Below are positions 26,621 through 52,172 of a DNA stretch of 64,000 nucleotides, one piece after another. Position 1 is the first letter of the stretch. Each line of letters begins with the position of its first letter. The stretch comes from Candidatus Micrarchaeota archaeon (GTDB lineage Archaea > Micrarchaeota > Micrarchaeia > Anstonellales > Bilamarchaeaceae). The DNA lies in assembly GCA_043812915.1 (NCBI GenBank), contig JBDRLQ010000003.1:61870-125869 (forward strand), read 5' to 3'. The notes beneath the pieces are model-generated. The model ran no database searches. It was given only the letters and a program-made list of their open reading frames with translations, and was not told where the DNA came from. The translations under genes and the position numbers were made by a program.

Positions 26621-26641
26621 ATATCACACGGGTAATATTCT

Positions 26642-27235: not shown

Positions 27236-27239
27236 TGCT

Positions 27240-30658: not shown

Positions 30659-33600
30659 CTATTCTTCACCAAAGAAGCGGGTTCCCATCCCGGTATCCAG
30701 GCCGCCGGTTCCTCCGTCGCCTCCGGTTCTTCCGCTTGCAAGGAATTCCTCGAGCGAGATGGCCCTGCTACCGGCGGGGAACAACTCCTGGAAGCCCACT
30801 CCCCTCTCAACGTTTCCACGGCCCGTAATCTGCAGATAGAATCTCTCAATCATATTCTCAAGCCTACCAACCCTCTCGGCAATTGCCTCAGGGCTGTCCG
30901 GGGCAACGCTTCTCCTAAGTAGCCCTCGCCTCTGGATTTCCGGCCGCGGCCCGAATGCGCTAAGGACGTGCTGGAATCCTCCCCTCCATGTCGCCCCTGC
31001 CTCTCGCGAGCCCTCCTCCAGATAAGCATAGACCTCTGAGAGCGGCCTTCCGGATTCAATCATGCTTATCATCTCCCTTGCGATTGCTGTTGCTTCAGTA
31101 TACTGCATATAGCCCGGGTTTCCGTGCGTGGCAATTGCCATGCCGATGAATCCGCTTGCATCATCAACCAGGTGCTGCAGCTCGTGATTGTACTTGCGCT
31201 GCATATGGGATTCGTGCGGCTCTCCGCTCGACCTTGGCCTGGATCTTGGGCTCCTGAGCACAATCATGCCGGAGTGCGATGAGAAAAAACCCCCAACGTC
31301 CTGGCGCAGTACGCTCGGCTCCCCTGGCAATGGGCTGACAAAAATGCCATTGACTCTCTGGCTCTCGCCAGCGCTCATCTCGTGCGATATTCTGTAGATT
31401 GCCATCCGCCCATCGAACTCTATCAAAGCCAGGCCGTGCCTTCCGAGCATCTCGTTTATTGCAGCAACCGCCCTCCCCCGTGATTCGGATTGGCTTGCCA
31501 TGGCAAGAAGGCGATTGCGGCTCTGTTCGATGGAACCTCCAAACATCTCATCCGGCATGGAATTGAGGATGGCGGTCACCATCTCACGCCTGGAGTCTCC
31601 TCCGGTACTTTCTCTAATAGGTCTTATTGCCCCAAGCAGCCTGTCTGCCAGTGCCTGGTCCAAAGTGCCTGAATACTCCCTTATCCTCACCTCGCCGCCA
31701 GGCCGCAGAAGCCTCCTGGATAGCTCTGAAATAACAATCGGATTGCCATGACCCAGCAAGACATTGTTCAGGTACTCGACCCTTCTCCTTGCGACAACCG
31801 GATGGTGCGCCGTTACCTGCCCTTCATGGGAGCCGAGCATGGCCCAGCTAGCAAAATGCTCGACAGCGCGGGTGAGTACGCTTATTCTCTGAATCCTCTC
31901 GAGTGGAGGCATATGCCGATCATTTCTGATTCTCTCAAGCTCATCTACAAACATACGATTGAATGTCCTGCGCGCCAGTTCCCCATCCTGGTATCCAGTG
32001 AAAACGCGCCCTATCGTCTCATCAACATTCCGGAGCACCTGCATGTCCGCCTGGAGCGTGGCAAGCTGCTCCGGGTCAATGTATCCTCGTTGGACATCAT
32101 GGTACACCCGGTCATAGAGCTGCCTTGCCAGAGGGCTGCTCTCAGGAGGCCTCTCCAAAGGAATCCTTGTTAGTGCCTCTTGCCTGAGTTTCCCAACCCT
32201 CCTGGAAATCAGTGTTCTCTCTGCATCCAGCCTTCCTTCCTGGGCATATAACCTTGCCCTGGCCTCAGGGTCGGTCTCCATGCGCCGCTCCCGTTCCAGC
32301 CCTATAACCTCCTGCATCAGCGCATCTGCCCTTGACTGGAGCTCATTAGCGCTTCCATCTGGCATGCGGAATGTGCCGTCATTCTGCAGGGCGGCAATCT
32401 CAAGCTCATTTGCCCCATGCCTCAGCTCCCCTTCTCTTGCCATTGCGATATTTAGCGCAAGCGCATCATCCATACTGACTCCGTTAATTGCATCATCAGC
32501 CTCTCCCCTTAGCTGCGCTGCAGCTTCCCTCATCGCCTCGCCAATCAGGAGCGCCTCAGCCCTCCTCTGGGCGTTTCCACGTATCCTACTTGCGCTCTGA
32601 TCCTCATGGATAGGGGCGGGGAAGCGCATCTCCCTTCTTTCCTGCTCATGCAGCTCCTCAAGCCTGGCGACCATCCTGTCCCTGTACTCCTGAGCGCCCT
32701 CCCCTTCCGCGCGCCTTATCCTCGAGACCACTTCAGGGTCCTGGCGCATAAGGGAAATCTCTGCCTGCAATCCCTGCTCAGCAAGAGAACGCATCTGCGC
32801 ACTCAACCCTGCATCCTGGTATACCCCCAGGCCATGCTCAAGGAAAAGCGCGCCTGCCCTGCGATGAATCCCGTCGGCGTCTTGCCTTGGGGAATGAGTA
32901 TCAACCCTGAGGGCCGGCTCCTCTGGAGCTGGTGCGGCAGCCCGCCTGCCATCAAGGACCTCGCGCATGAGCCGGAGCTGCACCCTTCCTTCGGCCCGTT
33001 GCCTGATTGCATGCATCCTATCTGAGTGTGAGCCGCTCCTTACATGCTCGGGGTCGTGCCATCTTGTAACTGCCCTCTCGACAGCCCCCTTCCTCTGCTC
33101 AAGGCCGGGGTCTTCCCTCAGCCCCCGCATGTACTCTTCATCTGAGCGGAAATTCCGGAGCTCGATTTCCTCAATCAGACGTTCTGTTTCCATAAGAAGC
33201 CGGTTGTACTCGTCGCTATTGATGCGGCCTGCCCCGGCCAGCTCCTCAAGCTGCGATACATTTCCGGCAATCTCCCGCTGGATAACCCGGGGGGTTCTGG
33301 CTGCACCGCCAGCCTCTTCCACAGGAGCTCTAGTCCTCGCTTCAATTGCCAAGTCCCTCAGATACTGCGCTTCGGCGCTGCGCTGGCCTGCGATGTTCGC
33401 CCGCTCGGCAGGGCTCATCTCAATCATGCCGGGCCGGGGGTTCATCATCTGCTCTGCCAGCTGCTGCCTCTGCTGCGCAAAAGCTTCAAGCTGCTCCGGC
33501 TCAGCGCTGCGGAGCCTCCTCACCAGTTCCTCGGCCGGAGCGTCCTGGCCAGCCTGAAGGAGCTGGCGCGCAAGCTCTGCCGGCTCCTGTATAATCGCCT

Positions 33601-36600
33601 GCAAGTCAAGGGCTTCAGCCTCTCGCATCAGGCGGCCGAACCTTTCATTGGCGGCGCGGACATCGTCCATGCTGCTCAATCCGCTCTCATACATCCTGTA
33701 GGCCTCGGTGCGGAGCCGTCCTGCCTCGGCCTGCAGCTCGGCTGCGGTGCCCTGGCTGATTCTGGCTTCAGAAACCGGAGGGGTAGCCTGCTCTGGCGAT
33801 CCCCGATTCCGCTGCTCATAATTTTGGAGGAATGTATCAACGCTGAAGGCCTGCATTATCTCCGGCGAAACATCCCTTCCCTGGGCATCTGCCCTCTGAC
33901 GCTCGACCTGGAGCCTTCCCCTAGCCGCGCGCATCTCGCTGTAGAAATGTCCGAAAGCGGCAGCGACTTCAGGCGTCATGAAATCCGCGTTGTCTGCTAA
34001 TGCCTGCCTGGCTTCCTCTCTTTCAGTGTCATTGCCGAACGCCATCCGGTGGGCGATATCCGCGACATCCTCAAGGGTGACAACCAGCACCTCGTCAACC
34101 TGGGGCGACCCCTGCCTGGCCGAATCGATGCTTCCGCCCATACGGTCTGCGACCATGAGCATGCGGTCAGGGTTGCCGCTGAATTCGCTGCCAGGTGTTA
34201 TCATATACATAACCGCATCCTGCATGTCTCGGCCCATCCCATTGAACCTTGCCCGGCCGCTTGCCCTTACAGTATCATCGTTTGAAAGTAGCTCTGTTGC
34301 TGCCAGGTAGAGCTCCCTGGCAGTAACGCTGAGCTCCTCGGATCTCTGCGGCGCGCTCTCCTCGAGGGCCTGCCTTGCGGCAGCTGCGCGCTCAGCGTCA
34401 GTTGGGACCCTGTCCCTTGGAAGCAGCTCATCCATGCGGGCGAACCTGCGCCCCCTGGGGCTATCATCCCGGCCTCCCCTGTCAAGGGGTGTGTATTCGG
34501 TAGCCAGATTCCCGACAATGTTTGGCGGGATTGCGCGCTCGCCCATCATCGCATAAAATTGCGGTGAGTGCCCGAAAGCCCTGGCGCCTTCGAACTGCCC
34601 TGGAATCAGCTGACCGACAGCCTCAGCGTGCCCGCCACCCGCTGCTGCAAGGGGCATCTGCTGCACTGCAGGCTGCATCTCAGGAAGCCGGGGGATGGTC
34701 TCATGGGCGCGTGATACTAAATCCCGCAAACTTGCCCTGGCCCTTGCATCTCCGATTTGTGCTACTCCTCCTCTTCTGCGGGGGCTCTGCCTGACTGCGG
34801 CTTCAATTGCGTCTGAATCATGGGACTGGGCGAAAGAAGCGAAATCTCTATTGCGAACAAGCATAGTTACTGCATCCTGAACTGCGGGTGGAAGCGATTC
34901 GACAGTTGCATCTCCGCGCGCGACTTCCCATGCGTACCTTGCAAGGGAGACCTGCGCTTCTGTCGCATCAGGATTGAGTATTCCCGCCTGCTGCGCGGCT
35001 TCTATCTGCGGCGGCATTGGAATCTCGGTTGGAGCTTCCCTCCTTGCAGGCGCTCTTGATATCGGTGTCGGGGGCCTTATTGTTCTCTCAGGCGCAGGCT
35101 CTGGCGCTGGGGTGGGGCTGCCCCGTTCATGCGCGGCTACCAGATTCCCCAGTTGCTCTGCGGAACTGTTCACCCCTCGCATAACGAACCTTCCCAGGTG
35201 GGAATCAGGATCTCCTGAAAAAACAGCCCTTGAGAACGGCGTGTTCGTCTCAACGGTACCATCACTTCTAATTTCAATCTCCCCGACCAGCCTCTCCACT
35301 TCCCTCCTTATCGGGTCTGCCAGGTTCATGCCATCGAGCGCGGCAAGGGCTCCTGTGCCCTCCCCTTCGAGCTGGCCAGCCCTTGCAAGAGCGACTTCCC
35401 TAGCGAAATTAGCCAGCTCGGTTGGATTTGTGAGGTTCCTGTCAGTGACAACTGTGGTGCTGGCATCTGTTGTGCCTATCGATAATGGCCTGGTGACTTC
35501 TCCTCGGTCCGCTGCCGGAGTCTCAAGAACCGGCTCGGGGGCAGGCCTTGGCTCTCCGCCTCCAGGCCCTCCGCCATCGGGTGGCGGGCGCCTCCTTGCG
35601 AGCGTCTCTGCAACATCAATGATTGTTTCAGCTTCGTTTGCCTCGCTGCCGCCTCGGCGCATCCTCTCTTCGATTGTGCCAAGGTGAGGCGATAGGCTCT
35701 CATCGAACCCTTCCTGCCGGTATCTTCCCTGGAGGAGCTGCCTGGCAATCTCCGCAACCGGGGCGTCTATCGCCTCATCCGCAATTAGCGAATTGAGTTC
35801 ATCGGAAGATTGCCTGAATAGGTGGTCATTGATTTCTGAGGCTGCCCTTCCAACCGCAGCTTCATCAAAGTCCGGAGTCCCTCCTGATGTCAACTCCTCG
35901 ACATGCTGCCTCACAATGTCGTTTGGCGGCAGCGATTCCAGCTCCTGCCTCGCCCCAGTTCCTTGCGTATCAAGCAGCACGCTTCTTGCGAATTCTCCGA
36001 GGCCCCCATCGCTGTTCAGCCTCCTGCTCCGCGCAAGCTGGGAGCCCCCGCTCTCTTCTCCAGCAATTACGGGGGCGGGTGTCTCATCCACAAGATCGAA
36101 TGCGAAGTCAAAATCATCGCCACTATCCGCAGCGAGGCGGTCAATTCCTGGCTCCTGCTCTGGCTGAATTGGCCTTCTCCCATAGTTCTCCTCTAGTACT
36201 CTATTGAATAAGTCGGAATGCAATCTAACCCGTCCATCCCTCCTTGAAATCGGCGTGTCCATGCCGGCAAAGGCTATCGGATGCCCTATTGATGGCTGAC
36301 CCGGATCCGAGGTATCAAGCCCGGCCCCGATGAAGGCATCCTGCCCCCGGTTTCTTTCACCTTCCACGTATCCGGACACAATTTCCTGGGCTGCCCGAAG
36401 CCTTTCATCTTCTAATGGTATGGCGTCTGCTGCCGCTCTTGCCTCATCGCTGTTCAGCCCTCTTAGTATCTCAGGGGCTGTCACTGCTTCATCCGGCGCT
36501 GAGAATGCACTTTGGTCCCTGGCAAGGCGGAGCGCCCTTGAGAAGCGGTCAGCAAAATCTTCGGTAACGCTGAAGAACTCCTCATCAAATCCGCGGTAGT

Positions 36601-39600
36601 CCGTTCCTTCTGGGCCCCTCCCAATCCTGGCAGCCACAAGGTCCAGGTCAATTGGCTGGAATGTCAACACTAACTGTCCGTCCACTTCAAGGAATGCTAC
36701 CACAGTATTTCTTGGATACCGATCAAGAAGCAGCGCCCTTCTTGATAGCTCGATGTAAGTATCCCAGGCTTCATAAACTTGCTGCCTTCCTTCGGGCGTT
36801 TGCATAAGGCCAATCAGCTGGCTCATGGCAGGGTTGCTCTCATGCTCTGACATCCACCTATCAAGGGATCTCTGGTATTCGGCCATGTCCTGCCTGTAAG
36901 CTTCATGGGATTCGGGAGTGGCATCATCTGCAGGGCGCCTTGGCGGTTCAGGTATGCTCAGGACATCATCCAAAAGTGCAACGCTCTCCACCCTGGCCCG
37001 CTCAACAAAGCCTCTTCCTGGAATTGCCACATCCCTGACTTCCGTTCCCACCAGTGAGCGGAAATCATCCGAGAAGCTGATTGGCTGGAGCACTGGCTCT
37101 CCATCAACCCTTACTCCTGAATCATAATGTTGGACCTGGTGGATGTCAGAGCTTATCATGCCTTGGCTTCTTGATAGGCCAAGCCCAAGAACCGCTGCCG
37201 AGGAATCCTCCATCTTCAGGAACAGGTTTCTTGAAGTCCCATCTGGCATATCGAGCCTCAGCCTGAAGATGCCTGAGATGCCCCCGAGCCGGTCTACCCC
37301 AGATATTCTTGCGCCATCATAACCGTCCAGGGCAGAGACCCTGTCCTGGACTCTGCCTCTGAAAACCAGGTCATAAACTGTTCCTGCCCTTGCCTCTATT
37401 GCCTGCATCCGCGCCATTCTTAGTGCAATCTTTTCCCTAAGACCTGCAAGGACATGTACTCTTAGTTCGGTGGGGGTCGTTACACGCGTGTCCGGTCTTA
37501 TATGGAACACATGCTCGTATTCCCGGGCAAGAGCAGCGACTGCCTCCGGCTCTGTGGTTGCCGCCAGCCTGTCGACTGCGCGCTGCAGGATGTCTATCTC
37601 CGCTGGCAATTCCTGGTGCCTTCTTGCCTCGCCCACTTCTATTCCAAGCTCTTCAAGTGCACCGATGCGGGCCTGGAAAAGACGCTCATTCGCGCTCCTG
37701 CCGCTGATGAATGCATGACGGATATTGCCTTCGGATACCCCCCTCAATTCAGTACCCGTATCTCTTAGCGCGGCAATCGCTGCCTCTGGAAGCTCGGCGC
37801 CCCCTTCCAGCTCGCGCAAAAGGCTCCTTGAAAATCTGTCCCTGTCAACAGAAACGCCCAGCCCCTCAAGCTCTCTCACAACGCCGTCAACCAACCCCCT
37901 GTTGTATGCTTGTGCAACATCAGTTCCGGTTTCCTCCCTGAACTGCTGCATCGCTTCCATTTCGCTTCCTGTTATCTCGGGGATTGTTCTTGCACTTATT
38001 ACTGCTTCTTCTGCAGCAACAGCTCGCGCGTCTCCCTGCGCAAGCCCCCAGTCATTTACCATCCTGTCCCTGATTTCCTGGGGCAGGCCAGGCTCACTAA
38101 GCCGGTGTACCATCTCATTGAGTTCAGGGGGCCCTGAACTTACCATCATCTGAAGCAGGCCCCCTTCGTTCTCTTCCATGTATCTGACAAGATTCCTCAA
38201 GCCGTCAGCTGTGGATGCCCAGTCCCGTGGCAGGCTCTCCATCGCGCCTTCAAACCTCTCTCCCCTGGCAAGTCTTTCCAGAATCATGACCTGCGCATCT
38301 GCCGGGAGCCGGCCGAATTCCTGCGTCATTGGGTGGTTGGCATCCTGCAATTCAGGCGACATGCTGACAATCCGCTCAAGGGCTCTTGCCCCTGGAAGCC
38401 CATCGTGAAGCGCCTGCTCAAGGACATCCCTCAGATTATTCCCATATAAATTCGCAAGCAGGCGCTCTCTCAATGCAGAAGAGAGCTCCTCCGGCGTGCC
38501 TGCAAGTGCTTCCCTCCTGGCAGGCGCTCCGGGCAATCTCCTATCCTCACCCACTGCTAGCGGGATTTCCTCTGCATCAGCATCGGATAGCGCCTGGTCA
38601 ACCGCCTGCCTTGCGCCATCCCCCCCGATTAATGCAGAAGGTCTTAACCTGGCTCTCTGGGCCGCGACAGTCAGCTCCGGATGCGTCAGGACTGCTGCCA
38701 GGATTTCAGCCTCGGAAGAATCTGCGGACAATCCTGCCCTCCTGACAACTGCCGCATCTAAATTGCCTTCCCTGATTGCCTCAACGGTATCCCTGATTCT
38801 TGCCAAATTTCCTTCGGTATATGCCCTCTCTCCAGTATCTGTGTGGAAAATTTCTCCATCCTCATTCGCGCGGAATCCTAGCGCTTCATAATTTCCATCC
38901 TCTAATATTGAGATTGCCTCATCAAGGTTCCCACTCCTGCGCAGAAGGTCTCCGGATGATACCTCTCCTGCTGGAAGGGCGCGTATCTGATCCATAAGCT
39001 CCGCACTCGCAGCTCTCAGTTCGTCAAGAGAAAGCAGGTGCATCTCCCTTCTTGCGGGCGCCGGGCCGCGCTCTTCCCTAACTTGCGGAGTCGGCATCCT
39101 GATTCTTCCGGTCCTTTCCCCTTCAGTAATTGGCGGCGGGGCTCTGTGAGGGCGTGTTCCATCCTCTTCTCTTTCGGGCCGTGGGGCCCTAATCCGTGCA
39201 GTTCCACCTCCATCCTGAGCCGGTCTTGGGGCTCTTGCCGGAACCGGCTCAATCACTTCCGGAGATGCGGGCGGCCTTGCCATCCGCTCTGGCCTTGGAG
39301 TTGGTCTCCTTATCCTTGCGGTTCCTCCGATATCAGCTTCCGGCTCGGGCGGCGCAATCGGCTGCTCGTCTGCCGCCAGTTGCGCAAGAGTCTCCAGGAC
39401 AATTTCCGGCGGCTCCGGAACCGGCTGGGCAACCGGCGCTTCGCGCCTTGGCGCTCCGGGTTCGATTGGATGCCTAACCCTTCTTGCAGCTTCTGCGGTG
39501 ACATGAATCCGGGCTTCCATATCATCCCGTATCCTGCCTATCCTCGCTCTTGCCGCCCTCCTGAAATCGAGCATTGTCGGTGACCTGCCGCCGGTAATCA

Positions 39601-45600: not shown

Positions 45601-48600
45601 TTCCGGCTAAGTGCACAATCCGTTGGGCCCTGCTCATCTGCCCCCAATGAGGTGTGAAAACAGCGGCCGCGAGCCTCTGATTGAATGTCGCCGTCCTCGC
45701 AAGCGGAGACACAACGCTCGGCGCAGACCTAAGCGCGGCCTGCTCCGCAAAGGCAACAGGCATGGTCGCAGCTGAAGCGAATCCGAGCCCCATGGAAGCT
45801 ATCATCATCCCGGTCTGCATATAAAGCTCCGGTGTCATAACTCCTGTCTGCTGGTACTGCTGCGCAATCCCTGGCAGCTGGGTAACCAGCGGAATCTCGG
45901 CTGCGATAATCATTCCGAGCGGGTTGCCGGTTGCAATAAGCGCTCCGGAGAGTACGACCTCGCCGACAATCTTGCTCGATTCGTATACTCCTCTCCAGAA
46001 TCGCATCTCTCCAATCGCAGCCCGTGTTGCTGAATCAGCGTCTTCCATCCGCCAGGTCACTCCACTAGGACGCCTGACGAACTCACCGCTATTGCCAAGC
46101 GCGATGCGGGAATCGCGAAGCGCTCTTTCTAGAGGTACGGGCTCTTCCGCGACCTCCCTCATCGTGACTGCGCTCAATGCGTCATTTGCGCGCCTGTGCC
46201 GGTACTGCATCCTGCGCAGGAAGCTGTCCATCCCAGCGCTGCCTATGCTGACATTGTGCTCAAGGAGGGTGTCAAGAAGAGCGCCGTTGAGCAGTCCCGT
46301 TTGCTGGCGGATTTCCCGTATCCTTGCCCGCTCCTCATCGGTTAGTTCGGAGAGTGGCATGCGCCCAAGCCCGTATGTGCCATCGCCATGGTCATAAACG
46401 CGGACGCCTAGCATGGTCAGGTCCATGGTGGTCCTTCCCTCAGCGATTTCGCGCATCGTGGCCCCGACATTCACTTCCTCAGCGGCCTCTGCATAATCCT
46501 CATATTCGCGGAATCTCCTTATGTTGAGCTCGCGCATCGCGCTGGCGACCCCGCTTGGCATTCCCCCCATCCCGCGCGTGGATACTAGCAGCCCGCCATC
46601 AGGGGTTGCGTGCCACGAGCGGCTGACCCCCCGGTGCTCGAACATCTCAATATAGAGGGGCTCGTTGTTGACCAGCATGTCGTAGAACCTGGCATCAACG
46701 CCCTCGCGCATCGCGCCCCTTGCCAGCGCTATCGCCCATGCCGCATGGCTCCTGTGGGCATCGAAGTTGAATCTTCCGTACTGGTCCCTTGCCCCCTCGA
46801 CCCTTGAGAGCTCGACACGGTCGGCCAGGCGCAAATCCTCCTGCGCGCTCGAGAGCATCATCCTTGCAAATGACCAGGCAACTTCCCTCTGCCTCTCCCT
46901 GCCGCTTGTCCTGTGCGCGGCCAATTCCGCAGCAAGCTGGAACTGCTCGGCTATGGAGAATCCTGTTTCGTGCGGCGGGGAGTCCGCTATACTCCCAACA
47001 ACCGTGCCAAGCAGCTCCGCATTCCTGAGAATTCCCTGGAAAATCCGGTTCGCAAGCTCTGCTCCTCCCCTCGGGTCTGAAATGCTGGTTTCATCCATCT
47101 GCCTTGCCAGCTGCGCATAGGTCAGCTCGGTTCCAGGAACCAGCTGCTCCCTCTGCTCATCGGACATCCTCGAGACCATCTCAAGAACGCTGTCCGTGGT
47201 TGCCGCAAGGATGGCGCCGCCAGCAAGCAATTGATTCCGTGCGGATGCGAATTCCCCTGCAGTGCCCCTCAGATCATCCGCGCTGCGCAGCATGCTGCGG
47301 CGCATGTCCTCAAGAGGGGTTTCGAACACTTCATTGCGGTCCTGCCTCTGCGCCCTTGGGGTCGGGTCCTCGCTGGTTGTTGGAGCGCCCTCCATCAGCT
47401 CTCTCCTCAGGCCGATTGCCTCCAGCTCGCGCCTCCATGCCTGATATCTGAAGCCGAGCCTCCTGCTGTCAGCGCTCTGCGCAGCGGCCGCTCGCATCCT
47501 GTCTCCGGTTACTGCCGCGAGCGCGGACTGGGCATCCCCGAGCCTGCCTGAATCTGCAAGCTGCAGGGCTGAAACAACCCTTCCATCCAGCCATTCCCCA
47601 TCGTAGTAGACCGTATCCCTTCCGACAACCTCGGACATCGGCCTTGCCGGAGCCCCTGGGAATCCGACCCTCTCGCGCAGCAGCTCCCTGCGCAGGGCAA
47701 GAAGCTCGCGGTATTCCGGGGAGCCGGGATTGATTGTCGGTGGGAGGCGGCTGAGCCTCCCGGCGTATTCTCCGGAATCGCCCAGGTACCCTGCCATCGT
47801 GAGCACTTCATCCCTCACCCTCGCAATATCCTCCGTGGTGGCAGGCTCCCAATCCGATGCTAGCCGGTCAAGGTATTCCTCTTCTCCGGGTGCGCCGGAA
47901 TAAATCGGAACTTCCTCTCCGATTGCGACCGGCCGGTCAATTGCCCCGAAGAACTCGGTCCTTGCAGCGCGGCCGGTAATCCTGATGTCAACCCTCTCAT
48001 GCGCTCCCCTAAGCCTGAATGCGACAAGGCCGGTCTGCTCACTTGCCTGCCTGAAGTCTTCTGCTAGCCATATGCCTCGGACGCGCTGGTACTCTGATTC
48101 GAAATGCGCTGCATCGTAAATCTGCCTTCCCCGCTCATCGACTACGTGGAGGTGCCCCATGCTAGCAACATCATCATAGAGGCTCTGGAGGGAAGCAAGG
48201 TTGCCTCTTGCCCTCTCAAACATTCTTTCATACTGTTCGCGGCGGACTCTTCCCTCTCCGGTTGCCGGCAGGGTGCTGATCATCCTTCCGATCCTATCCT
48301 CAAGGCCCTCGATGTTCCTCTCATGAATGCTTTCCCTGGCGTTCCGGAGGCCGCGGTCACGTGTCGCCTGCGTCGCCTCGAGCGCACGGACTGCAACGGT
48401 GCCCAGCCCAACAAGGCTTCTTGCGTGCGCATCCAGCGTCCTCTCCCTCTCCTCGGTCAGCTCAACCGGCTCCCCGCCCCTGGCAATCTCGTTGCCAAGA
48501 AGGTCCACATCATGCCCTCTTGCCAGCCCGATTGCGACATGCGTTCCGGTGTAGAGCTCAAACCTTCCGCGGTGCCTCCTGCGCACAGTGAGCGCAACGC

Positions 48601-51600
48601 TCCGGTCGAATGTCTCTGCTCCATCGAGCACCTGCGCCGCGCACTCGAAATGCCCATCCGCCTCCCGCATGGCCATCCCTCCATGAACCTGGAGCAGCTG
48701 GTCATATAATGTTCTGAGGGCATCCTCTCTTCCATCCGAATCCTCAATCGCCCGTGCGGATTCCACCTGCTGCGAGAACTGGGCCCTTGCCCGCTCGGGC
48801 AGCGCGGCGGTTAGTTCCTCTATCCTGCTGTTTACTGTTTCCATGTCAGCGGTGGCAGAGCGCTGCGCCTCGTCAAGGAATCCGTGCGCCCTCTCTCGCG
48901 CCTCCGCGCCAGAGCGATAAGTGTCTCTTGCGACAGTCGCGGCAAGCCCGGTAAACTCAGTTGAAACCATTGATGCCTGGAAATCATAATGCCTGGCAAG
49001 GGCATCACCGCCTCCCCCTCTCACCCTTGCAGCAAGCTGGCCAAGCCTCGCAGCTTCCCTCTCATATCTGGTAGAGTCAGCAGACTCAAGGCCGCGGCAG
49101 CGAAGCTCGAAGCTTGCCCGTTCAAAGCCCCTCATGTGCATTCTTGTGGTCGATGCGAACTGCTGGACCTCTGCGAGCGCGCCCTGGGCGTCCCCATCTG
49201 CAAGCGAGCCGACAAGCGAGTTCCTGCCCATTGCCTCTTCGATTAGCGCCGAGCCTAGCGGGGCATCAACAGAGCCTTCATCCAGGCGTAATGCCTCCCT
49301 TCCTTCAGCCCCAAGGTCAGCAATCCTCCGTCCTCCTAGCAGCCTGCCGCTTCTGTAATCTCCAAGCTGGGACTGCACGAATTCCATCGCTTCTGTGCGC
49401 GCACTCCTTTCCTCATCTCTCAAACCGGAGACATCCTTGTTCGCCCAGGAAGCGTACATCACTGCAGCTTCGCGGACCGCCTCCGCAGTGTCCGGGCTCC
49501 TCCCGGAGGCTGCCTGCAGGGCGAAATCGAAATACGCCCGCACGTTGCGCAGCTCCCTTGCATCGGTTGTATTGCTCTCATGCTCTGCCCTCAGTCGCTG
49601 CACTTCAAAAACGGATGCGGCAACCTGGCCGTCAATCCTGCCTTCATGCAGCTGCCTGGCAGTATCAAGAACTACCGCGCGCTCGCGAGCCTCTGTAACT
49701 GAAGATCTCCCCAGCTCAAAGTATGCGGTGGCCGCCTGGCGGTATGTAGTGCCAGAATCGAAATCGCCATCAATAATCGCGTCGATGGAAAATCCGTAAA
49801 TTTCTGAAATCTCGCTCCTGAATTCCGGCTGCCTGGTGCTGCCAAGCTGCTCCAGCATCGCGGTTCCGCTCTGCACTAGCTGGTCCACACGGTCATTCGC
49901 CTCAGCAATCAGGTTCTGCCTGGCAATCTCGTCTAAGGCCTGGTCCTCGGTCATCTCAGGGTTGCTTCCTCTGATCCTTTCGACCATCACTTCGGTTCCC
50001 CGCCTCACTCCTGCATCCTGATCCATCTGCTGCTCGAGTTCCATTCTTCTGGCTGTCACCTGCTCATCGGTGACAAGTTCCCCACTGGCAATTCCGGCTC
50101 TTGCTTCCTCGAGTGCTGAAACCAGCCTTCCCATCTGCTCGGCGCCTGCCGTGTGCCGCAGGAGCGCCCGCGCATTTCCAGAAGTGAATTCCCGAATCTG
50201 ATTATCAAGCATGAAGTACTGCTCCGCGCTGGCAAGAACCTGCTCACCGCCGCTCTGGAGCCTTCCTGAGAGCTGCTCAATCTCGACCCTCTGCACGGAT
50301 TCGGCCTCTACAAAACGCACTGCCAGGTCCATCTGGGCCCTTGCGACCCTGACGTCTCCTCCATCCTCAAGGACCTGCAGGCCGCGCGCGTATATAGCAG
50401 TTGCTCCTTCGCTCACTTCTGGCGAAGGAGAACGTGCGGCCCCAAGCCGCGCTGTCACGCTCTCGGCAATATCGAGCGCTGCCCTTGCCCTCTGCAAGTC
50501 CGCAAGACCGTCGGCGTCTCTTGCCGATGCCGCGATTCTACCCAATCTCTCCCGCGCGTCCCCTGCCAATGTCCCTGCGCTCTCTTCCAGCCTTCCTGCA
50601 AAACGTTCTGCGAGCGTGGAAACAAGCGCCCCCTCTGCCGCTGTGCGCTGTCCCCTTATCGCGTCCGTTGCTTCCTCTTCCGGTCTGTACAGCTGCCTCA
50701 CTGATGCAACCCGGGATGCGAGCTCTCTCCTGTAAGCGGAATCTCCTCTTTCCTGGTGCCGCACCATTTCATCAGAAGCCAGCATGAGCGTATCATAAGT
50801 TTCCATGCCCCCCCCGGATGCAAGGACATCTAGCGCGGCGCCGTAAGTCCTTTCAACCTGCTGCCTTACCGCGTCGGTGCGGATTGTGGCCAGGTCATCA
50901 ACCATCCTGCCAATATCGAGTGTGCGCCTTGACATCCTGGCAATCTCATCCGCACCCACCTGCGACGCATCTTCCCTCAGGCGCGCAAGCATGCCGTCCA
51001 GGTCGCTGATTGCCCTTTCAATCTGGCTGCGCATCTCGCCCTGGCGCATGCCCTCCAGGCTTTCCATGAGTGTCTGCCTTTGGTAGCCAAAGGCGCTCTG
51101 GACCGCCTCCGTCCTCTCGGTGCGCAGCTCCTGCATTGCGTCCGAGAAGTTGTCCATCGCGGCCCCTGCCTGCCCAGTGTCCAGCTCAGCCTCGGGGGTT
51201 GCGAACCTTTCCATACCGGCAGTCAGCTGCATGAGGGCCGTTGAACCTGCTGGGCTGAGCAGTATCTCCCGGTTCTCTATGAATGTGTGGGCGCCGCGCA
51301 GTATCAGCTCTCCCCTTGCCTGCTCTTCTGTTCCGAAAAACTGAAGGCCTGCAGCAGTGTGCTCTATGAAACTCTCGGGGGCTCCTGCGACAGAGAGTTC
51401 CCGTATTGTGCGGACGATGTCCGGAAGCCTCTCAATCCTGAGGCGCGCCTGCTCAAGAAGCTCGTTTGCGCGCTCTCTATCTTCTGCAGAAACCCTCCCT
51501 TCCTCAGGATGGAGCAGTGTCTGCGCTTCGGTAATCTGCTCTCTTAGAATGTCAAGCTGCTGGTCCAGCCCCGGCACATGCTCGAACGCGTCCAGGCTTC

Positions 51601-51835
51601 CTAGCAGCTCATCAGCACCTTCTCTCCTTCCTATCAACTGGTCGAAATGCTCGCCTATGTCGGCGACCTCGTCAGCGCGCCTTTCTGCCTCTTCAAGCGC
51701 CCTTAGCAATTCAGGGGAGACTTCCTCCCGGCGAATCGGGACTGCTGCTGCCATCTGGCCCAGAATCTCCTCTGCTGCGGTGACCTGGTCATCCCGTCCT
51801 TCGGGCCTCCCTCGTGTTCTGTCCCTGAAAACCAT
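30659..51835 (-). CDS. giant (~7,058 aa) lysine-depleted multidomain protein: helical N-region, hydrophobic segment, repeats, atypical kinase, C-terminal zincin
   Basis: Uninterrupted 21-kb ORF. Preferred start ATG 51835 after GAGGA, 4 nt after the upstream stop. Motifs GGISGIF/LFLK/DRYPRN/IDLD and HELQH...E. Confidence 0.92.
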   Translation of the reverse strand: MVFRDRTRGRPEGRDDQVTAAEEILGQMAAAVPIRREEVSPELLRALEEAERRADEVADIGEHFDQLIGRREGADELLGSLDAFEHVPGLDQQLDILREQITEAQTLLHPEEGRVSAEDRERANELLEQARLRIERLPDIVRTIRELSVAGAPESFIEHTAAGLQFFGTEEQARGELILRGAHTFIENREILLSPAGSTALMQLTAGMERFATPEAELDTGQAGAAMDNFSDAMQELRTERTEAVQSAFGYQRQTLMESLEGMRQGEMRSQIERAISDLDGMLARLREDASQVGADEIARMSRRTLDIGRMVDDLATIRTDAVRQQVERTYGAALDVLASGGGMETYDTLMLASDEMVRHQERGDSAYRRELASRVASVRQLYRPEEEATDAIRGQRTAAEGALVSTLAERFAGRLEESAGTLAGDARERLGRIAASARDADGLADLQRARAALDIAESVTARLGAARSPSPEVSEGATAIYARGLQVLEDGGDVRVARAQMDLAVRFVEAESVQRVEIEQLSGRLQSGGEQVLASAEQYFMLDNQIREFTSGNARALLRHTAGAEQMGRLVSALEEARAGIASGELVTDEQVTARRMELEQQMDQDAGVRRGTEVMVERIRGSNPEMTEDQALDEIARQNLIAEANDRVDQLVQSGTAMLEQLGSTRQPEFRSEISEIYGFSIDAIIDGDFDSGTTYRQAATAYFELGRSSVTEARERAVVLDTARQLHEGRIDGQVAASVFEVQRLRAEHESNTTDARELRNVRAYFDFALQAASGRSPDTAEAVREAAVMYASWANKDVSGLRDEERSARTEAMEFVQSQLGDYRSGRLLGGRRIADLGAEGREALRLDEGSVDAPLGSALIEEAMGRNSLVGSLADGDAQGALAEVQQFASTTRMHMRGFERASFELRCRGLESADSTRYEREAARLGQLAARVRGGGGDALARHYDFQASMVSTEFTGLAATVARDTYRSGAEARERAHGFLDEAQRSATADMETVNSRIEELTAALPERARAQFSQQVESARAIEDSDGREDALRTLYDQLLQVHGGMAMREADGHFECAAQVLDGAETFDRSVALTVRRRHRGRFELYTGTHVAIGLARGHDVDLLGNEIARGGEPVELTEERERTLDAHARSLVGLGTVAVRALEATQATRDRGLRNARESIHERNIEGLEDRIGRMISTLPATGEGRVRREQYERMFERARGNLASLQSLYDDVASMGHLHVVDERGRQIYDAAHFESEYQRVRGIWLAEDFRQASEQTGLVAFRLRGAHERVDIRITGRAARTEFFGAIDRPVAIGEEVPIYSGAPGEEEYLDRLASDWEPATTEDIARVRDEVLTMAGYLGDSGEYAGRLSRLPPTINPGSPEYRELLALRRELLRERVGFPGAPARPMSEVVGRDTVYYDGEWLDGRVVSALQLADSGRLGDAQSALAAVTGDRMRAAAAQSADSRRLGFRYQAWRRELEAIGLRRELMEGAPTTSEDPTPRAQRQDRNEVFETPLEDMRRSMLRSADDLRGTAGEFASARNQLLAGGAILAATTDSVLEMVSRMSDEQREQLVPGTELTYAQLARQMDETSISDPRGGAELANRIFQGILRNAELLGTVVGSIADSPPHETGFSIAEQFQLAAELAAHRTSGRERQREVAWSFARMMLSSAQEDLRLADRVELSRVEGARDQYGRFNFDAHRSHAAWAIALARGAMREGVDARFYDMLVNNEPLYIEMFEHRGVSRSWHATPDGGLLVSTRGMGGMPSGVASAMRELNIRRFREYEDYAEAAEEVNVGATMREIAEGRTTMDLTMLGVRVYDHGDGTYGLGRMPLSELTDEERARIREIRQQTGLLNGALLDTLLEHNVSIGSAGMDSFLRRMQYRHRRANDALSAVTMREVAEEPVPLERALRDSRIALGNSGEFVRRPSGVTWRMEDADSATRAAIGEMRFWRGVYESSKIVGEVVLSGALIATGNPLGMIIAAEIPLVTQLPGIAQQYQQTGVMTPELYMQTGMMIASMGLGFASAATMPVAFAEQAALRSAPSVVSPLARTATFNQRLAAAVFTPHWGQMSRAQRIVHLAGMGLMAGGTMQAIIEAPGMIEAVRSGQTHMMVAIVSLAQTVLQPVQFGMQARRTAIAGRRGTPVYRSRTAQFFEAAIFGTPFDSREAHAAALSGMRANMEFSRLPGAERRALPGRRAHEGVRLSDAQESYLSYVRELDGRGIRLTESQEADVLTSYREHCDAAVRSGEPVPAFDAFLRADSPGATEARISILESHFDAYAQGGMPYQDLSEFQQRYADAREGMRVGDDGIRRPIESGPMSEAEAYQFALDQVSRGGEPPPTPPTAPPTPTTPTLEVAPAPDVTPEPALAAPAPPPGAARAEAMAIRRDALAVRMDAAEQNVLIPPAGDVRTFTLGEGDTAIHFTPEHVRIASELVAYTERVLRTPRGEQRDAALAAVPESLRAQVERLATDPHFRRATRAEGGPERREQILLGLERTGYVEGVSREVIDSAYAVEARRIAESPDELASHMLDIAASRTEEAAQLRERADGLSEEALMHERAGQPEVAQEMRGRASRLNERAQTLEYSAGQLREEAQARIEVEQEMAVQATRASIEEQLTPMAEGGGLALGDGGQAIPIAPEHLSIASELVTNGERILALPREQRTEAIANTVPERYRRQMEQLVTDPVFRMAVRDGDSRTRAMLGLERAGYVGGVSRDIRDLSYAVQARRLAGTEGIDADYLTRLADSRTEDAAELRARADSLAEDAILARSDPERAAPLQSEASRLNEQAAILEGSASALRQEAERMARAPAREEGLLRAPSEIITGPEPEAIVRQEAEVEPVAEQIAAGAEELTGAPPPPQPEVVRPAPEPVSQEMQELLNESLFEGMQTYAELGFRVSEDGQSFVHEDVPTRRFTEDEMDIMVEIAETVANHGTGARANFEEGSPALQVYQQITRLLSDEQVANLERLGSSREVLDAIAVHVGRAEPIPDAATDTERALILSAQDALEGYRVSMSSADMRTLQDNIREQLESARSMHEDMLSILEMLPEGEAAGRANAQVLEGQARGRVEILERYAELLDQRIERMETSQEAALARLGQWYSDADQRGLRFDADILDGHRERARRAVAGLRRRLDEVNSLRAGGDSEALMMQAESLERRISSLNDVIESFMQASDGEESRARREDLSTEGRYLLEEGEHLGFNSFRVDDDSQLRLSHQDERLAGIEFSESDFNTIESLMSSFRAGLDQDIANPMVAHLYPVVEQHAPGLRERIAAANPSELPGLVAELTRSLNEGGHRIGVREGEAVRAEVTPTIERTAQRYGMETEDDGVHYILRMEGAPDITLTRMDATRAMNLAEAIGAETPQFLRGIELDIQARAELDAIIQSTIDNSEGRIATREQALEHLRQMDDAQLMRTIAPHITETAIAARLEGATPVSETVAPRRMELMRRTRERIEGSDPEVLMVGDALAELRMRERAEEMADMAVRQRLIGMIRSRAEELRAQRMQEIADARARGVPEDQLPREPTTLANNQAMYEVYRDLARPQGQREFAATRDEHRTLQEIRAEAIDEAQRTLFGSAEGDQIRLEAMTDAARAVAAIDMLNEGADTAQLGLTGADIVLVRDLQQTRTEFAQTEGIRLRAMRRRTELRADGAGDAEAQLIAAAEGLSRGESAELQGIREDTERVARFLLANPEFSQADTDGRIRIANETLETLTARLPEQMDTNDTLALELNQGRLQDYHASGVVPEGFEQDMRALQTLMRAGGRIAPNQEDLQIAAWGRVRRTRAGTGARQDAIMQETGLNSDRARTMASAEAMIRGATAEELGIDADVAIRATMLLGSDDFRRAAAAQDIRAMAEAEGPLPATIEPVPIDVSAPRMREEVAILSIGRLREAYQAYQRDRRRGQGEIPSEFRQEIEALEDIARSGRRPTEEDLRRVAEGRIDRIRDSLEVEALAIREQYGSSLDDARALAAARMLSRTGEGGRILYTPEELGLSDALAARALGIGQGQLPIAEGPLPQRVVRALERYVGRAGRELARRGREEAAVRDTARQMRDIYRGRVEMPEDYRQDMLTLGMITGGRSPTMLDFRRAARARIGRIRDDMEARIHVTAEAARRVRHPIEPGAPRREAPVAQPVPEPPEIVLETLAQLAADEQPIAPPEPEADIGGTARIRRPTPRPERMARPPASPEVIEPVPARAPRPAQDGGGTARIRAPRPEREEDGTRPHRAPPPITEGERTGRIRMPTPQVREERGPAPARREMHLLSLDELRAASAELMDQIRALPAGEVSSGDLLRRSGNLDEAISILEDGNYEALGFRANEDGEIFHTDTGERAYTEGNLARIRDTVEAIREGNLDAAVVRRAGLSADSSEAEILAAVLTHPELTVAAQRARLRPSALIGGDGARQAVDQALSDADAEEIPLAVGEDRRLPGAPARREALAGTPEELSSALRERLLANLYGNNLRDVLEQALHDGLPGARALERIVSMSPELQDANHPMTQEFGRLPADAQVMILERLARGERFEGAMESLPRDWASTADGLRNLVRYMEENEGGLLQMMVSSGPPELNEMVHRLSEPGLPQEIRDRMVNDWGLAQGDARAVAAEEAVISARTIPEITGSEMEAMQQFREETGTDVAQAYNRGLVDGVVRELEGLGVSVDRDRFSRSLLRELEGGAELPEAAIAALRDTGTELRGVSEGNIRHAFISGRSANERLFQARIGALEELGIEVGEARRHQELPAEIDILQRAVDRLAATTEPEAVAALAREYEHVFHIRPDTRVTTPTELRVHVLAGLREKIALRMARMQAIEARAGTVYDLVFRGRVQDRVSALDGYDGARISGVDRLGGISGIFRLRLDMPDGTSRNLFLKMEDSSAAVLGLGLSRSQGMISSDIHQVQHYDSGVRVDGEPVLQPISFSDDFRSLVGTEVRDVAIPGRGFVERARVESVALLDDVLSIPEPPRRPADDATPESHEAYRQDMAEYQRSLDRWMSEHESNPAMSQLIGLMQTPEGRQQVYEAWDTYIELSRRALLLDRYPRNTVVAFLEVDGQLVLTFQPIDLDLVAARIGRGPEGTDYRGFDEEFFSVTEDFADRFSRALRLARDQSAFSAPDEAVTAPEILRGLNSDEARAAADAIPLEDERLRAAQEIVSGYVEGERNRGQDAFIGAGLDTSDPGQPSIGHPIAFAGMDTPISRRDGRVRLHSDLFNRVLEENYGRRPIQPEQEPGIDRLAADSGDDFDFAFDLVDETPAPVIAGEESGGSQLARSRRLNSDGGLGEFARSVLLDTQGTGARQELESLPPNDIVRQHVEELTSGGTPDFDEAAVGRAASEINDHLFRQSSDELNSLIADEAIDAPVAEIARQLLQGRYRQEGFDESLSPHLGTIEERMRRGGSEANEAETIIDVAETLARRRPPPDGGGPGGGEPRPAPEPVLETPAADRGEVTRPLSIGTTDASTTVVTDRNLTNPTELANFAREVALARAGQLEGEGTGALAALDGMNLADPIRREVERLVGEIEIRSDGTVETNTPFSRAVFSGDPDSHLGRFVMRGVNSSAEQLGNLVAAHERGSPTPAPEPAPERTIRPPTPISRAPARREAPTEIPMPPQIEAAQQAGILNPDATEAQVSLARYAWEVARGDATVESLPPAVQDAVTMLVRNRDFASFAQSHDSDAIEAAVRQSPRRRGGVAQIGDARARASLRDLVSRAHETIPRLPEMQPAVQQMPLAAAGGGHAEAVGQLIPGQFEGARAFGHSPQFYAMMGERAIPPNIVGNLATEYTPLDRGGRDDSPRGRRFARMDELLPRDRVPTDAERAAAARQALEESAPQRSEELSVTARELYLAATELLSNDDTVRASGRARFNGMGRDMQDAVMYMITPGSEFSGNPDRMLMVADRMGGSIDSARQGSPQVDEVLVVTLEDVADIAHRMAFGNDTEREEARQALADNADFMTPEVAAAFGHFYSEMRAARGRLQVERQRADAQGRDVSPEIMQAFSVDTFLQNYEQRNRGSPEQATPPVSEARISQGTAAELQAEAGRLRTEAYRMYESGLSSMDDVRAANERFGRLMREAEALDLQAIIQEPAELARQLLQAGQDAPAEELVRRLRSAEPEQLEAFAQQRQQLAEQMMNPRPGMIEMSPAERANIAGQRSAEAQYLRDLAIEARTRAPVEEAGGAARTPRVIQREIAGNVSQLEELAGAGRINSDEYNRLLMETERLIEEIELRNFRSDEEYMRGLREDPGLEQRKGAVERAVTRWHDPEHVRSGSHSDRMHAIRQRAEGRVQLRLMREVLDGRRAAAPAPEEPALRVDTHSPRQDADGIHRRAGALFLEHGLGVYQDAGLSAQMRSLAEQGLQAEISLMRQDPEVVSRIRRAEGEGAQEYRDRMVARLEELHEQERREMRFPAPIHEDQSASRIRGNAQRRAEALLIGEAMREAAAQLRGEADDAINGVSMDDALALNIAMAREGELRHGANELEIAALQNDGTFRMPDGSANELQSRADALMQEVIGLERERRMETDPEARARLYAQEGRLDAERTLISRRVGKLRQEALTRIPLERPPESSPLARQLYDRVYHDVQRGYIDPEQLATLQADMQVLRNVDETIGRVFTGYQDGELARRTFNRMFVDELERIRNDRHMPPLERIQRISVLTRAVEHFASWAMLGSHEGQVTAHHPVVARRRVEYLNNVLLGHGNPIVISELSRRLLRPGGEVRIREYSGTLDQALADRLLGAIRPIRESTGGDSRREMVTAILNSMPDEMFGGSIEQSRNRLLAMASQSESRGRAVAAINEMLGRHGLALIEFDGRMAIYRISHEMSAGESQRVNGIFVSPLPGEPSVLRQDVGGFFSSHSGMIVLRSPRSRPRSSGEPHESHMQRKYNHELQHLVDDASGFIGMAIATHGNPGYMQYTEATAIAREMISMIESGRPLSEVYAYLEEGSREAGATWRGGFQHVLSAFGPRPEIQRRGLLRRSVAPDSPEAIAERVGRLENMIERFYLQITGRGNVERGVGFQELFPAGSRAISLEEFLASGRTGGDGGTGGLDTGMGTRFFGEE
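39525..40605 (-). repeat. three diverged ~45-aa repeats within the giant protein
   Basis: VPEGFEQDMRAL..GGRIAPNQEDL / IPSEFRQEIEAL..SGRRPTEEDL / MPEDYRQDMLTL..GGRSPTMLDF. Confidence 0.75.
43420..44620 (-). repeat. tandem duplication of a ~190-aa unit within the giant protein
   Basis: PEHVRIASELV..VPE..TDPHFR..LGLERTGYV.GVSR..SRTEEAA..ASRLNE versus PEHLSIASELV..VPE..TDPVFR..LGLERAGYV.GVSR..SRTEDAA..ASRLNE. Confidence 0.9.
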
Positions 51836-51839
51836 CTGC

Positions 51840-52172
51840 TTATCCTCTGCGGTATGTGCGGCATATGTCACTGAATTCGCACAGCCTCTGCACTCTCTCG
51901 GTATATTCGCTCTGGCTGGCGATGTCGCTTAGCATCTTCTTTTCCCAGTTTGATAACGCCTGGTGGAAGTACCTTAGCCTGTTTATCCTGATTTTAATGT
52001 CTATGGGCTTCTTTTCTGAGGCGTCCCACACTGCAATCGCGTTCTCTATGGCGGAGATTGCCTTATTGGTTTTTTCCAGCGTCTGCTTCTCTATTTTCTG
52101 AAGCTCAGAACTAGCAATTTTCACCTGTTTACTGCTGCGGCTGGGGCTGCTTCTAGCCTTCTTTTTTGCCAT
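51840..52172 (-). CDS. small helical hypothetical protein co-transcribed with the giant gene
   Basis: TTTATAAA box near 52195, GAGGTG RBS; stop 4 nt before the giant gene's ATG. Confidence 0.75.
   Translation of the reverse strand: MAKKKARSSPSRSSKQVKIASSELQKIEKQTLEKTNKAISAIENAIAVWDASEKKPIDIKIRINRLRYFHQALSNWEKKMLSDIASQSEYTERVQRLCEFSDICRTYRRG

Follow-up and report, generated by a model that had tools for sequence, protein, structure and literature searches.

Near-complete lysine avoidance in a giant protein of a Micrarchaeota archaeon and in other proteins of its genome

Why would an archaeon encode a protein of some 7,000 residues with almost no lysine (Lys), next to genes that use Lys freely? 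The question is raised by a giant gene in a 64,000-nucleotide stretch of contig JBDRLQ010000003.1 from a Candidatus Micrarchaeota archaeon (assembly GCA_043812915.1), which we refer to throughout as the window. The source genome (G000) is archaeal, comprises 1.30 Mb in 26 contigs at a guanine plus cytosine (GC) content of 52.9%, is 89.6% complete with 0.24% contamination, and matches the archaeal small-subunit ribosomal RNA model with 1,363 bits; the window lies on a 256-kb contig. A first-pass annotation, made from the letters of the window alone, had reported about seven Lys in the giant, abundant arginine (Arg) and Lys-rich neighbours, had discounted GC bias as the cause and had linked the loss of Lys to export.

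Lysine avoidance in the giant gene

The gene and those parts of it that are discussed below are the following.

30659..51835 (-): giant gene, 7,058 codons plus stop, with 7 Lys, 12.0% Arg and 3 cysteines (Cys)
44936..51835 (-): N-terminal module, about residues 1-2300, homologous to the N-termini of Lys-free and Lys-normal giants
45458..45970 (-): hydrophobic cluster of about four helices, residues 1956-2126, the only membrane-like segment
36086..37468 (-): predicted PI3/PI4-kinase-like (atypical protein-kinase-like) domain, residues 4790-5250, from an AlphaFold2 (AF2) model, Foldseek and VIA-align
37214..37216 (-): codon of Lys 4874 (context LFLKMED), the only Lys of the giant that is conserved among Lys-free homologues
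30662..32053 (-): C-terminal region, residues 6595-7058, with the HExxH motif HELQH at residues 6884-6888 (nucleotides 31172-31186)

Read from ATG 51835, the protein contains exactly seven Lys (0.10%; residues 800, 1955, 4802, 4874, 6249, 6549 and 6881), and all seven of the contexts that had been listed for them could be located. The open frame reaches further, to GTG 51871 (30659..51871 (-), 7,070 amino acids (aa)), and holds an eighth Lys upstream of ATG 51835; we favour the ATG because the orthologue P0002 begins at the equivalent Met. The seven Lys divide the protein into Lys-free runs of 799, 1154, 2846, 71, 1374, 299, 331 and 177 residues, so that the longest stretch without Lys is 2,846 residues. 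With 6% Lys, the binomial probability of seven or fewer Lys in 7,058 residues would be 1.6e-175; with 1%, it would still be only 3e-22. Arg is indeed abundant, at 849 residues (12.0%), and Cys is nearly absent, at 3 (0.04%), both counted on the 7,070-aa frame; Ala makes up 13.2% and Glu 10.6%. For comparison, the genome averages 6.0% Lys, 5.8% Arg and 1.3% Cys, with a median of 6.9% Lys per open reading frame (ORF), in a set of 1,146 crude ORFs of at least 100 aa that were called by home-made means, longest ORF first. Lys plus Arg together reach 12.1% in the giant and 11.9% in the genome, and in the giant nearly all of this is Arg. The remark that Ile, Phe, Tyr and Asn are common in the giant holds as far as it goes, but their sum is 10.6% against 17.4% in the genome (each about 1.5-1.9-fold lower); Lys is about 55-fold lower.

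The flanking ORFs have 2.6-15.9% Lys, in agreement with the first-pass annotation, and the recognisable neighbours (RNA 3'-phosphate cyclase, LonB, DUF373 and adenylosuccinate synthetase) are Lys-normal. Housekeeping proteins in general are not Lys-poor. Metatranscriptomic contigs from one library, labelled groundwater metagenome, cover 28 of 30 bins of the giant gene and leave two uncovered, which hints at expression.

Base composition does not account for the absence of Lys. GC at the three codon positions (GC1/2/3) is 0.668/0.488/0.605 in the giant gene against genome means of 0.552/0.397/0.655; the extra GC is thus confined to positions 1 and 2, and GC3 lies below the genome mean. AAA and AAG together occur seven times in frame against 258 expected from positional base frequencies, and 234 and 280 times in the two other frames. 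Furthermore, Lys-free homologues of the kinds described below lie in loci of 39-51% GC (39-40% in genomes G273 and G260), and Lys-normal giants in loci of 58-62% GC (G176, G258 and G390). Because GC3 is low, Lys codons are avoided only in frame and Lys-free homologues occur in low-GC loci, these data support a loss of Lys that was selected and not compositional. The earlier dismissal of GC bias was therefore correct, neither GC nor lineage predicts the Lys state, and the giant shows the Arg/Lys bias unexplained by GC that is looked for in AB-toxin-type proteins. The giant gene is richer in GC than its flanks (55-61% versus 49-55%), as mutational GC bias or a recent transfer from a high-GC, Lys-poor donor would have it, but both are refuted by the GC3 value, by the Lys-free homologues in 39-40% GC loci, by orthologues at 34-41% identity that are all Lys-free, and by the spread of the Lys-free class over several loci amid housekeeping genes. 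As a separate observation, the synonymous codons of the giant deviate from those of the genome despite its lower GC3: CAA encodes 11% of Gln (genome 49%), CGA 2% of Arg (14%) and TTG 9% of Leu (23%).

Two lysine states in homologous families

A HMMER scan with residues 4790-5250 of the giant returned 51 proteins, mostly of 3,000-7,300 aa. Every member of this kinase-domain family that has a source name is labelled Candidatus Micrarchaeota or Micrarchaeia, and the domain was found in 22 of 401 sampled genomes of the phylum, all in the taxonomic family of the window's genome (21 of 75 other members of that family; 0 of 325 genomes from other families). The Lys content of the proteins is bimodal: 13 of 52 have at most 0.43%, 36 have at least 3.1%, and only three fall between, at 1.1-2.9%. 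Cys is nearly absent throughout, in Lys-normal members as well. A second, unrelated family, assembled around a 3,373-aa protein and found in 32 of 99 genomes of the taxonomic family, is divided in the same manner, with 14 of 29 loci at or below 0.92% Lys, one at 1.47% and 14 at or above 3.6%, as read from partial frames of about 500-1,570 aa. Across both families, nearly all proteins thus have either at most 0.4-0.9% Lys or 3-11%.

Twelve genomes carry both families. Both are Lys-free in G000, G001, G260 and G363, both are Lys-normal in G164, G080, G293, G143 and G250, and only the second is Lys-free in G176, G390 and G348; a Lys-free kinase-domain family together with a Lys-normal second family was found in none of the 12. 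In G176, kinase giants with 10.8% and 5.8% Lys exist alongside second-family giants with 0.14% and 0.38%. One metagenome-assembled genome (MAG), as identified by locus tags, encodes P0008 with 0.31% Lys together with P0012 (6.6%) and P0003 (5.1%), and another, identified in the same way, encodes P0016 with 0.08% and P0034 with 7.9%. The Lys state belongs to the protein, and not to the organism or to its GC content.

When the Lys state is mapped on a quickly built maximum-likelihood tree with 53 copies of the domain, the 15 Lys-free rows require 11 changes, at least five of which are forced by well-supported branches; these rows are hardly more clustered than shuffled labels (47 of 500 shuffles were as low). 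Forcing a single Lys-free clade in an approximately unbiased (AU) test on the same tree costs 217 log-likelihood units (p-AU 1e-62), a rejection that partly reflects paralogy, as the tree mixes duplicated domains within proteins; better evidence comes from several well-supported small clades in which Lys-free and Lys-normal members are mixed. The Lys state has thus switched repeatedly. Once reached, the Lys-free state is kept over long periods, since the diverged orthologues mentioned above have all kept it (P0002 at 0.11% Lys, the G001 orthologue at 0.43%).

Arg is the principal replacement. At the Lys positions of 36 Lys-normal homologues the giant most often has Arg (22.8% of 1,902 positions), and a Lys-normal control comparison at the same kind of positions gave 23.6% Lys and 14.8% Arg. 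AGG and AGA, which are one transition away from AAG and AAA, constitute 63% of the Arg codons of the giant versus 49% genome-wide. Among the seven Lys that are left, Lys 4874 alone is conserved: the residue is Lys in six of seven aligned Lys-free homologues (P0010, P0008, P0006, P0009, P0016 and P0005) and also in the Lys-normal P0003 and P0012.

The region around Lys 4874 is modelled as a two-lobe kinase-like fold. The AF2 model of residues 4790-5250 has a predicted local distance difference test (pLDDT) score of 84.4 and a predicted template modelling (pTM) score of 0.85; Foldseek gave 44 matches at E<=1e-3 with PIKK/PI3K chains on top (E about 1e-4), and VIA-align gave PI4KIIIbeta at Z 12.8 (root-mean-square deviation 4.7, 251 residues aligned), PI3Kgamma at Z 12.2 and CotH at Z 12.1. 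Glu 5029, DRxxxN at 5038-5043 and PxDxD at 5061-5065 are invariant, and D249, R250, N254, D274 and D276 of the domain are the same in all of 17 sequences; we take these to provide the catalytic loop (DRxxxN) and the metal-binding Asp, and Lys 4874 to be the N-lobe Lys. By sequence, no kinase family was found at E<=1 on 770-aa Pfam pieces, and a search of PDB sequences gave chance matches only. The first-pass annotation had called one retained Lys the predicted catalytic residue of a kinase: its place in a kinase-like fold and its retention in six of seven homologues agree with this, whereas the Arg of P0002 and the lack of a sequence-family match do not. Five small Lys-normal members (P0036, P0038, P0039, P0043 and P0046; 780-860 aa) have Ser, Asn or His for the N-lobe Lys and, on the basis of this substitution, may be pseudokinases.

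The remaining parts of the giant are shared to differing extents. The N-terminal module is covered by 5-9 Lys-free and 4-13 Lys-normal BLASTP high-scoring segment pairs per 100-aa bin over residues 101-2300 and is 36-41% identical to P0002 and the G001 orthologue. Within it, a crude hydropathy scan flags one 19-residue segment of the hydrophobic cluster (1972-1990 in 7,070 numbering), and the other helices were recognised by eye. Lys 1955 (45971-45973 (-)) stands directly before the first helix of the cluster, where it resembles the Lys-rich n-regions described below; it is not conserved in orthologues. The HExxH motif and a following Asp are common to four giants (the giant, P0003, P0016 and P0031). 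Zincin metallopeptidases, in which HExxH sits on the active-site helix beside a beta-sheet, were considered for this region. The AF2 model of this C-terminal region places the motif on a helix after a sheet at a pLDDT of only 62.8, from a three-row alignment; with this low-scoring model Foldseek returned nothing at E<=1e-3 (best E 0.28), and no shorter homologues were present among 8,000 scored candidates. Pfam found no family in the giant, either in two halves at E<=0.01 or in ten 770-aa pieces at E<=1, where only sub-threshold noise was seen, so that membership of the Pfam PI3_PI4_kinase family, which we had considered, is rejected. PHROGs likewise gave no family, and NCBIfam two matches far below cut-off. 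By eye, the translation also contains two neighbouring copies of a unit of about 200 residues (residues ~2400-2800, ~43400-44650 (-)) and, within a Pro-rich linker, three short repeats ending in Thr-Ala/Gly-Arg-Ile-Arg (residues ~4170-4240, ~39100-39350 (-)).

The lysine-free class and its topology

The giant is not alone in its genome. A class defined by less than 0.6% Lys, more than 8% Arg and a length of at least 180 aa comprises 14 ORFs, and the ratio Lys/(Lys+Arg), which had been put forward as a marker, picks it out as a discrete group. Together these ORFs occupy 4.4% of the DNA and encode 19,240 aa, among them 25 Lys and 19 Cys; the eight of at least 700 aa account for 17,469 aa and 23 Lys. 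The class includes small proteins of 188-803 aa, some of which may be spurious given the home-made ORF calls. Whether Lys is lost only in giant proteins, as the first-pass annotation asked, is answered in the negative both by these members and by the many Lys-normal giants of the same family. The giant has no BLASTP match at E<=1e-3 among all other ORFs of the genome.

Class members occur at several loci, each flanked by Lys-normal genes. The largest of the other loci has four genes, for proteins of 3,373, 737, 1,590 and 1,912 aa, interrupted only by a 164-aa ORF on the opposite strand. The 737-aa protein carries a GDSL esterase domain; apart from this domain, a Pfam scan of 25 proteins other than the giant, Lys-poor ones or neighbours, gave nothing. 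Synteny of the cluster extends to G363, G260 and G390, and those orthologues from G363 and G390 that were tested have the esterase domain as well. In several genomes the cluster is preceded by a conserved Lys-normal protein of 1,100-1,350 aa without a Pfam family, which is a candidate partner or export component and is apparently split into 543 and 898 aa in the source genome:

G000:C12:83980-88304: Lys-normal protein preceding the cluster
L103:4385-8209: orthologue
L105:12991-17046: orthologue

In class members with a Sec-like N-terminus, Lys is concentrated before the hydrophobic segment, that is, in the cytoplasmic n-region. All three Lys of C17:6036 are at residues 4, 7 and 10 of 1,282 (post hoc P 5e-7), both Lys of C12:19787 are at residues 6 and 9 of 312 (post hoc P 8e-4), and five of the nine Lys of C12:60033 are in the first 52 of 1,912 residues (post hoc P 2e-6); a G260 orthologue has three of five in its first 31. 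In 25 signal-class proteins the mature part has less than 1.5% Lys; their n-regions comprise 318 residues, of which 41 are Lys and 27 are Arg, although the signal class is a home-made, hydropathy-based and noisy one, with three of ten scanned high-Lys members being plainly cytoplasmic enzymes. This confinement bears out the proposed link between Lys loss and export. It also means that Lys codons are usable in the same mRNAs and that Lys is tolerated on the cytoplasmic side, which argues against Lys sparing, against causes acting through tRNA-Lys or codons, and against avoidance of the organism's own ThiF/ThiS-like/proteasome system.

About 30 residues from the N-terminus of both Lys-free giants there is a short motif, hydrophobic-hydrophobic-Pro-x-Arg-Arg/Glu, at these positions:

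window 51730-51760: giant, residues ~26-36
G000:C12 near 83350: 3,373-aa protein, residues ~30-35

The pattern was written post hoc and matches five of 1,146 ORFs, with looser forms in many homologues of both families. It might serve as an export signal, and we regard it as a lead only.

A second kind of Lys-poor protein is also present, of 1,500-3,800 aa, signal-bearing and Cys-rich (1.3-6%), with about 1% Lys and 2-3% Arg. These are presumably surface proteins, distinct from the Arg-rich Lys-free class:

G000 C25:20123-31594
G000 C16:7145-15901
G000 C11:10523-17761
G000 C3:215571-224817
window 26624-27352 (-)

By ARAGORN and Rfam, the sole RNA gene in the window is a tRNA-Ser with anticodon TGA (1942-2026 (-)).

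Explanations and comparison with known systems

The explanation that we tentatively favour is that the giant is one of a set of proteins that are exported to interact with a host, and that Lys has been purged from them because a hazard directed at Lys awaits them at the destination. The set would consist of long, helical proteins that combine an internal hydrophobic cluster with enzyme-like modules (PI3/PI4-kinase-like and HExxH, with a GDSL esterase in the sister cluster), made by a host-dependent archaeon of Micrarchaeota type. In some lineages, purifying selection would strip Lys from the part that leaves the symbiont cytoplasm; Arg would substitute where positive charge is needed, and Lys would be kept only if catalytically indispensable. 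An exposed Lys may be a liability at the destination through ubiquitin-like, SAMP or Urm1 tagging followed by proteasomal removal, through cross-linking, or through cleavage at Lys by the host. Delivery to a host cell, or into it, and the identity of the hazard are both inferred. Where class members can be interpreted, their features (the kinase-like domain, the esterase, the HExxH region and the hydrophobic clusters) suggest proteins that act on another cell.

Several points weigh against this explanation. Groups were defined by the feature and then counted, and related genomes are not independent. Lys-normal paralogues share the hydrophobic cluster, the kinase-like domain and the HExxH region, so that architecture alone does not predict the Lys state. 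A crude hydropathy scan shows no N-terminal signal in the giant, and Lys-free sequence flanks its hydrophobic cluster on both sides; the noise of the signal class and the doubt over the small class members, given above, count here as well. The Lys-free orthologue P0002 has Arg at the supposedly catalytic Lys 4874. Finally, a ThiF-type E1-like protein, a small ThiS-like protein and a 20S proteasome are encoded in the symbiont's own genome, which makes a self-directed hazard possible. The genes concerned, with those of two transglutaminase-core proteins, are:

G000:C1:35450-36085: ThiF-type E1-like protein
G000:C20:26399-26539: ThiS-like protein, 64 aa
G000:C5:13885-14433 and G000:C12:25368-25907: two 20S proteasome subunits
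G000:C1:44347-44640 and G000:C1:53001-53321: two transglutaminase-core proteins

A self-inflicted hazard could also arise beyond the cell. It is conceivable, though unlikely, that the symbiont co-delivers a Lys-directed activity of its own (a protease, a transglutaminase-type cross-linker, or an acyl- or ubiquitin-like transferase), and that the fellow travellers are Lys-free for this reason. The whole co-located class is Lys-free, and lysine deserts shield E3 ligases from self-modification (PMC13696103). Two Transglut_core proteins are encoded, one of which falls into the signal class, and the giant carries an HExxH motif. However, Transglut_core occurs in four of five genomes with Lys-free giants and in five of five with only Lys-normal giants, and the HExxH region is also found in the Lys-normal giants P0003 and P0031. 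Transglutaminase, although present, thus does not track the Lys-free state and is rejected as the self-hazard. Moreover, a BLASTP coverage map revealed no domain exclusive to Lys-free members, and the genome, at its 89.6% completeness, gave no match to the Lys-specific peptidase families Aspzincin_M35 and Peptidase_C25, the blank for C25 being weak as its control matched no control genome.

A physical or translocation constraint, under which the Arg guanidinium group would be needed for crossing or binding membranes or for the stability of very long charged helices, is also improbable. Arg-rich cell-penetrating peptides, in which Arg is favoured for membrane crossing, provide a model. Total positive charge is preserved while Arg replaces Lys, the class proteins are helical and rich in Arg and Glu with hydrophobic clusters, and the effect is limited to what follows the signal segment. 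If Arg were merely preferred, however, Lys would not be expected to fall to 0.1% with almost no intermediates, and Lys-normal paralogues of the same architecture coexist in the same genomes.

It is very unlikely that the proteins avoid the symbiont's own cytoplasmic SAMP/Urm1-proteasome route, which would give large and costly products a long life. The components listed above are encoded, and giants without an obvious signal are Lys-free along their whole length. But the signal-bearing class members use Lys freely in their n-regions, which face the cytoplasm; the genome also encodes Lys-normal proteins of very large size (1,596 aa at 7.4%, 1,283 aa at 8.6%); and the ThiF, ThiS-like and proteasome genes are near-universal in archaea, as judged from control genomes.

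An environmental chemistry acting on all exposed proteins, such as alkaline pH (at which Lys loses its charge and Arg keeps it) or amine-reactive compounds, is largely refuted. Predicted exported proteins are indeed poorer in Lys than cytoplasmic ones (median 3.2% versus 7.9%), and Cys, the other strong nucleophile, is also near zero. Arg, however, falls in exported proteins too, with Lys/(Lys+Arg) at 0.46 versus 0.56; recognisable extracellular proteins retain Lys in the mature part (Beta_propel 4.6%, fn3/Big_7 3.9%), Lys-free and Lys-normal giants share one genome, and Cys is equally absent from Lys-normal homologues. Lys depletion is not general to extracellular or exported proteins. Explanations from translation or nutrition (sparing of Lys in an auxotroph, expression under tRNA-Lys depletion, or immunity of the mRNA to Lys-codon-specific ribonuclease toxins) are disfavoured to the point of being hardly credible: avoidance is strictly in frame and DPANN archaea generally lack amino-acid biosynthesis (PMC12892359), but the same mRNAs hold clusters of Lys codons within their first 10-52 codons, equal-sized Lys-normal giants occur in the same genomes, and Arg, which is likewise costly, is raised to 12%.

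By this elimination of other causes, the hazard would be placed beyond the symbiont membrane, where it would hit only a particular set of proteins, as the export explanation proposes. A more specific form of that explanation is possible, if doubtful: the Lys-free state may be a repeatedly evolved counter-defence against archaeal hosts that attack the inserted proteins of DPANN symbionts at Lys, by ubiquitin-like conjugation and the proteasome or by cross-linking, so that exposed lineages purge Lys from what they deliver. If this were true, the Lys fraction would reveal which proteins an uncultured symbiont injects, and the mixture of Lys-free and Lys-normal paralogues would be a record of host switches or of an arms race. 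To our knowledge, almost nothing is known of the means by which DPANN archaea affect their hosts, and the giant proteins of these archaea lack recognisable domains. The signature described here (Lys near zero and Arg at 10-13%, beyond the signal segment) appears to mark a discrete exported set and offers a means of nominating effector candidates from sequence alone in uncultured symbionts. It would further imply a Lys-directed hazard at the symbiont-host interface, extending to archaea the logic of AB toxins and lysine deserts. As Lys-free and Lys-normal paralogues occur in one genome, natural matched pairs are available to test the idea.

Among known systems, Bil-type bacterial defence is an immune system that attaches a ubiquitin-like protein to one of the invader's structural proteins (bioRxiv 10.1101/2023.09.04.556158). 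It exemplifies a hazard from which a lack of Lys would protect the proteins of an invader, and it is known from conflicts between phages and bacteria. The SPEARE giants of Nanohaloarchaeota (8,880-9,409 aa), thought to mediate host interaction or effector delivery, are likewise giant proteins of DPANN symbionts; the accessible sections of that paper (PMC10266531) mention no Lys depletion. Unlike SPEARE, with its Sec signal, Ig/fibronectin-like domains and VirB4/TraG-like ATPase, the giant shows none of these features by Pfam and hydropathy, and no similarity between the two was detected. With PI3/PI4-kinases and CotH-type atypical kinases the giant shares a predicted fold (Z 11-12.8), the DRxxxN and DxD motifs and a conserved Lys on an N-lobe strand, but there is no Pfam or PDB sequence match, and the N-lobe Lys is lacking in the five small family proteins and in P0002.

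The closest parallels lie in proteins that avoid Lys. The A chains of ricin (ricin A), cholera toxin (A1) and pertussis toxin (S1), which are routed through the endoplasmic reticulum, are Lys-poor, and this has been read as escape from Lys-directed tagging and proteasomal loss (PMC13696103). As in the giant, replacement of Lys by Arg is near-total and GC is no explanation; in the toxins, it is the depleted part that reaches the target cytosol. AB-toxin A chains have roughly 200-250 residues. The toxins act from bacteria or plants on eukaryotes, whereas the proteins described here are archaeal, reach 7,000 residues and form a whole class in one genome, with a target cell and a tagging system that are inferred; no relation of sequence or fold to the toxins was seen.

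Lysine deserts, defined as Lys-free stretches of at least 150 aa or at least 50% of a protein (PMC10665810), have been described in components of the eukaryotic ubiquitin-proteasome system and in Actinobacteria with pupylation and their phages (PMC10665810, PMC13696103). By this definition the giant is a lysine desert many times over, and some of the published deserts are, like it, enriched in Arg (PMC10665810, PMC13696103). In the accessible sections of these two papers, archaea appear only as halophiles, with GC given as the cause, and our literature search found no paper that connects DPANN or Micrarchaeota with Lys depletion, although the supplementary tables of the desert papers may list archaeal cases. 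Unlike the actinobacterial deserts, which are confounded by high GC, the giant has a run of 2,846 Lys-free residues in a genome of 53% GC, an extreme case for the lysine-desert literature, and its state is bimodal within families. In relation to these systems, we rate as new the appearance of Lys avoidance in a further domain of life, its unprecedented scale, its switch-like and recurrent distribution, and its topological signature.

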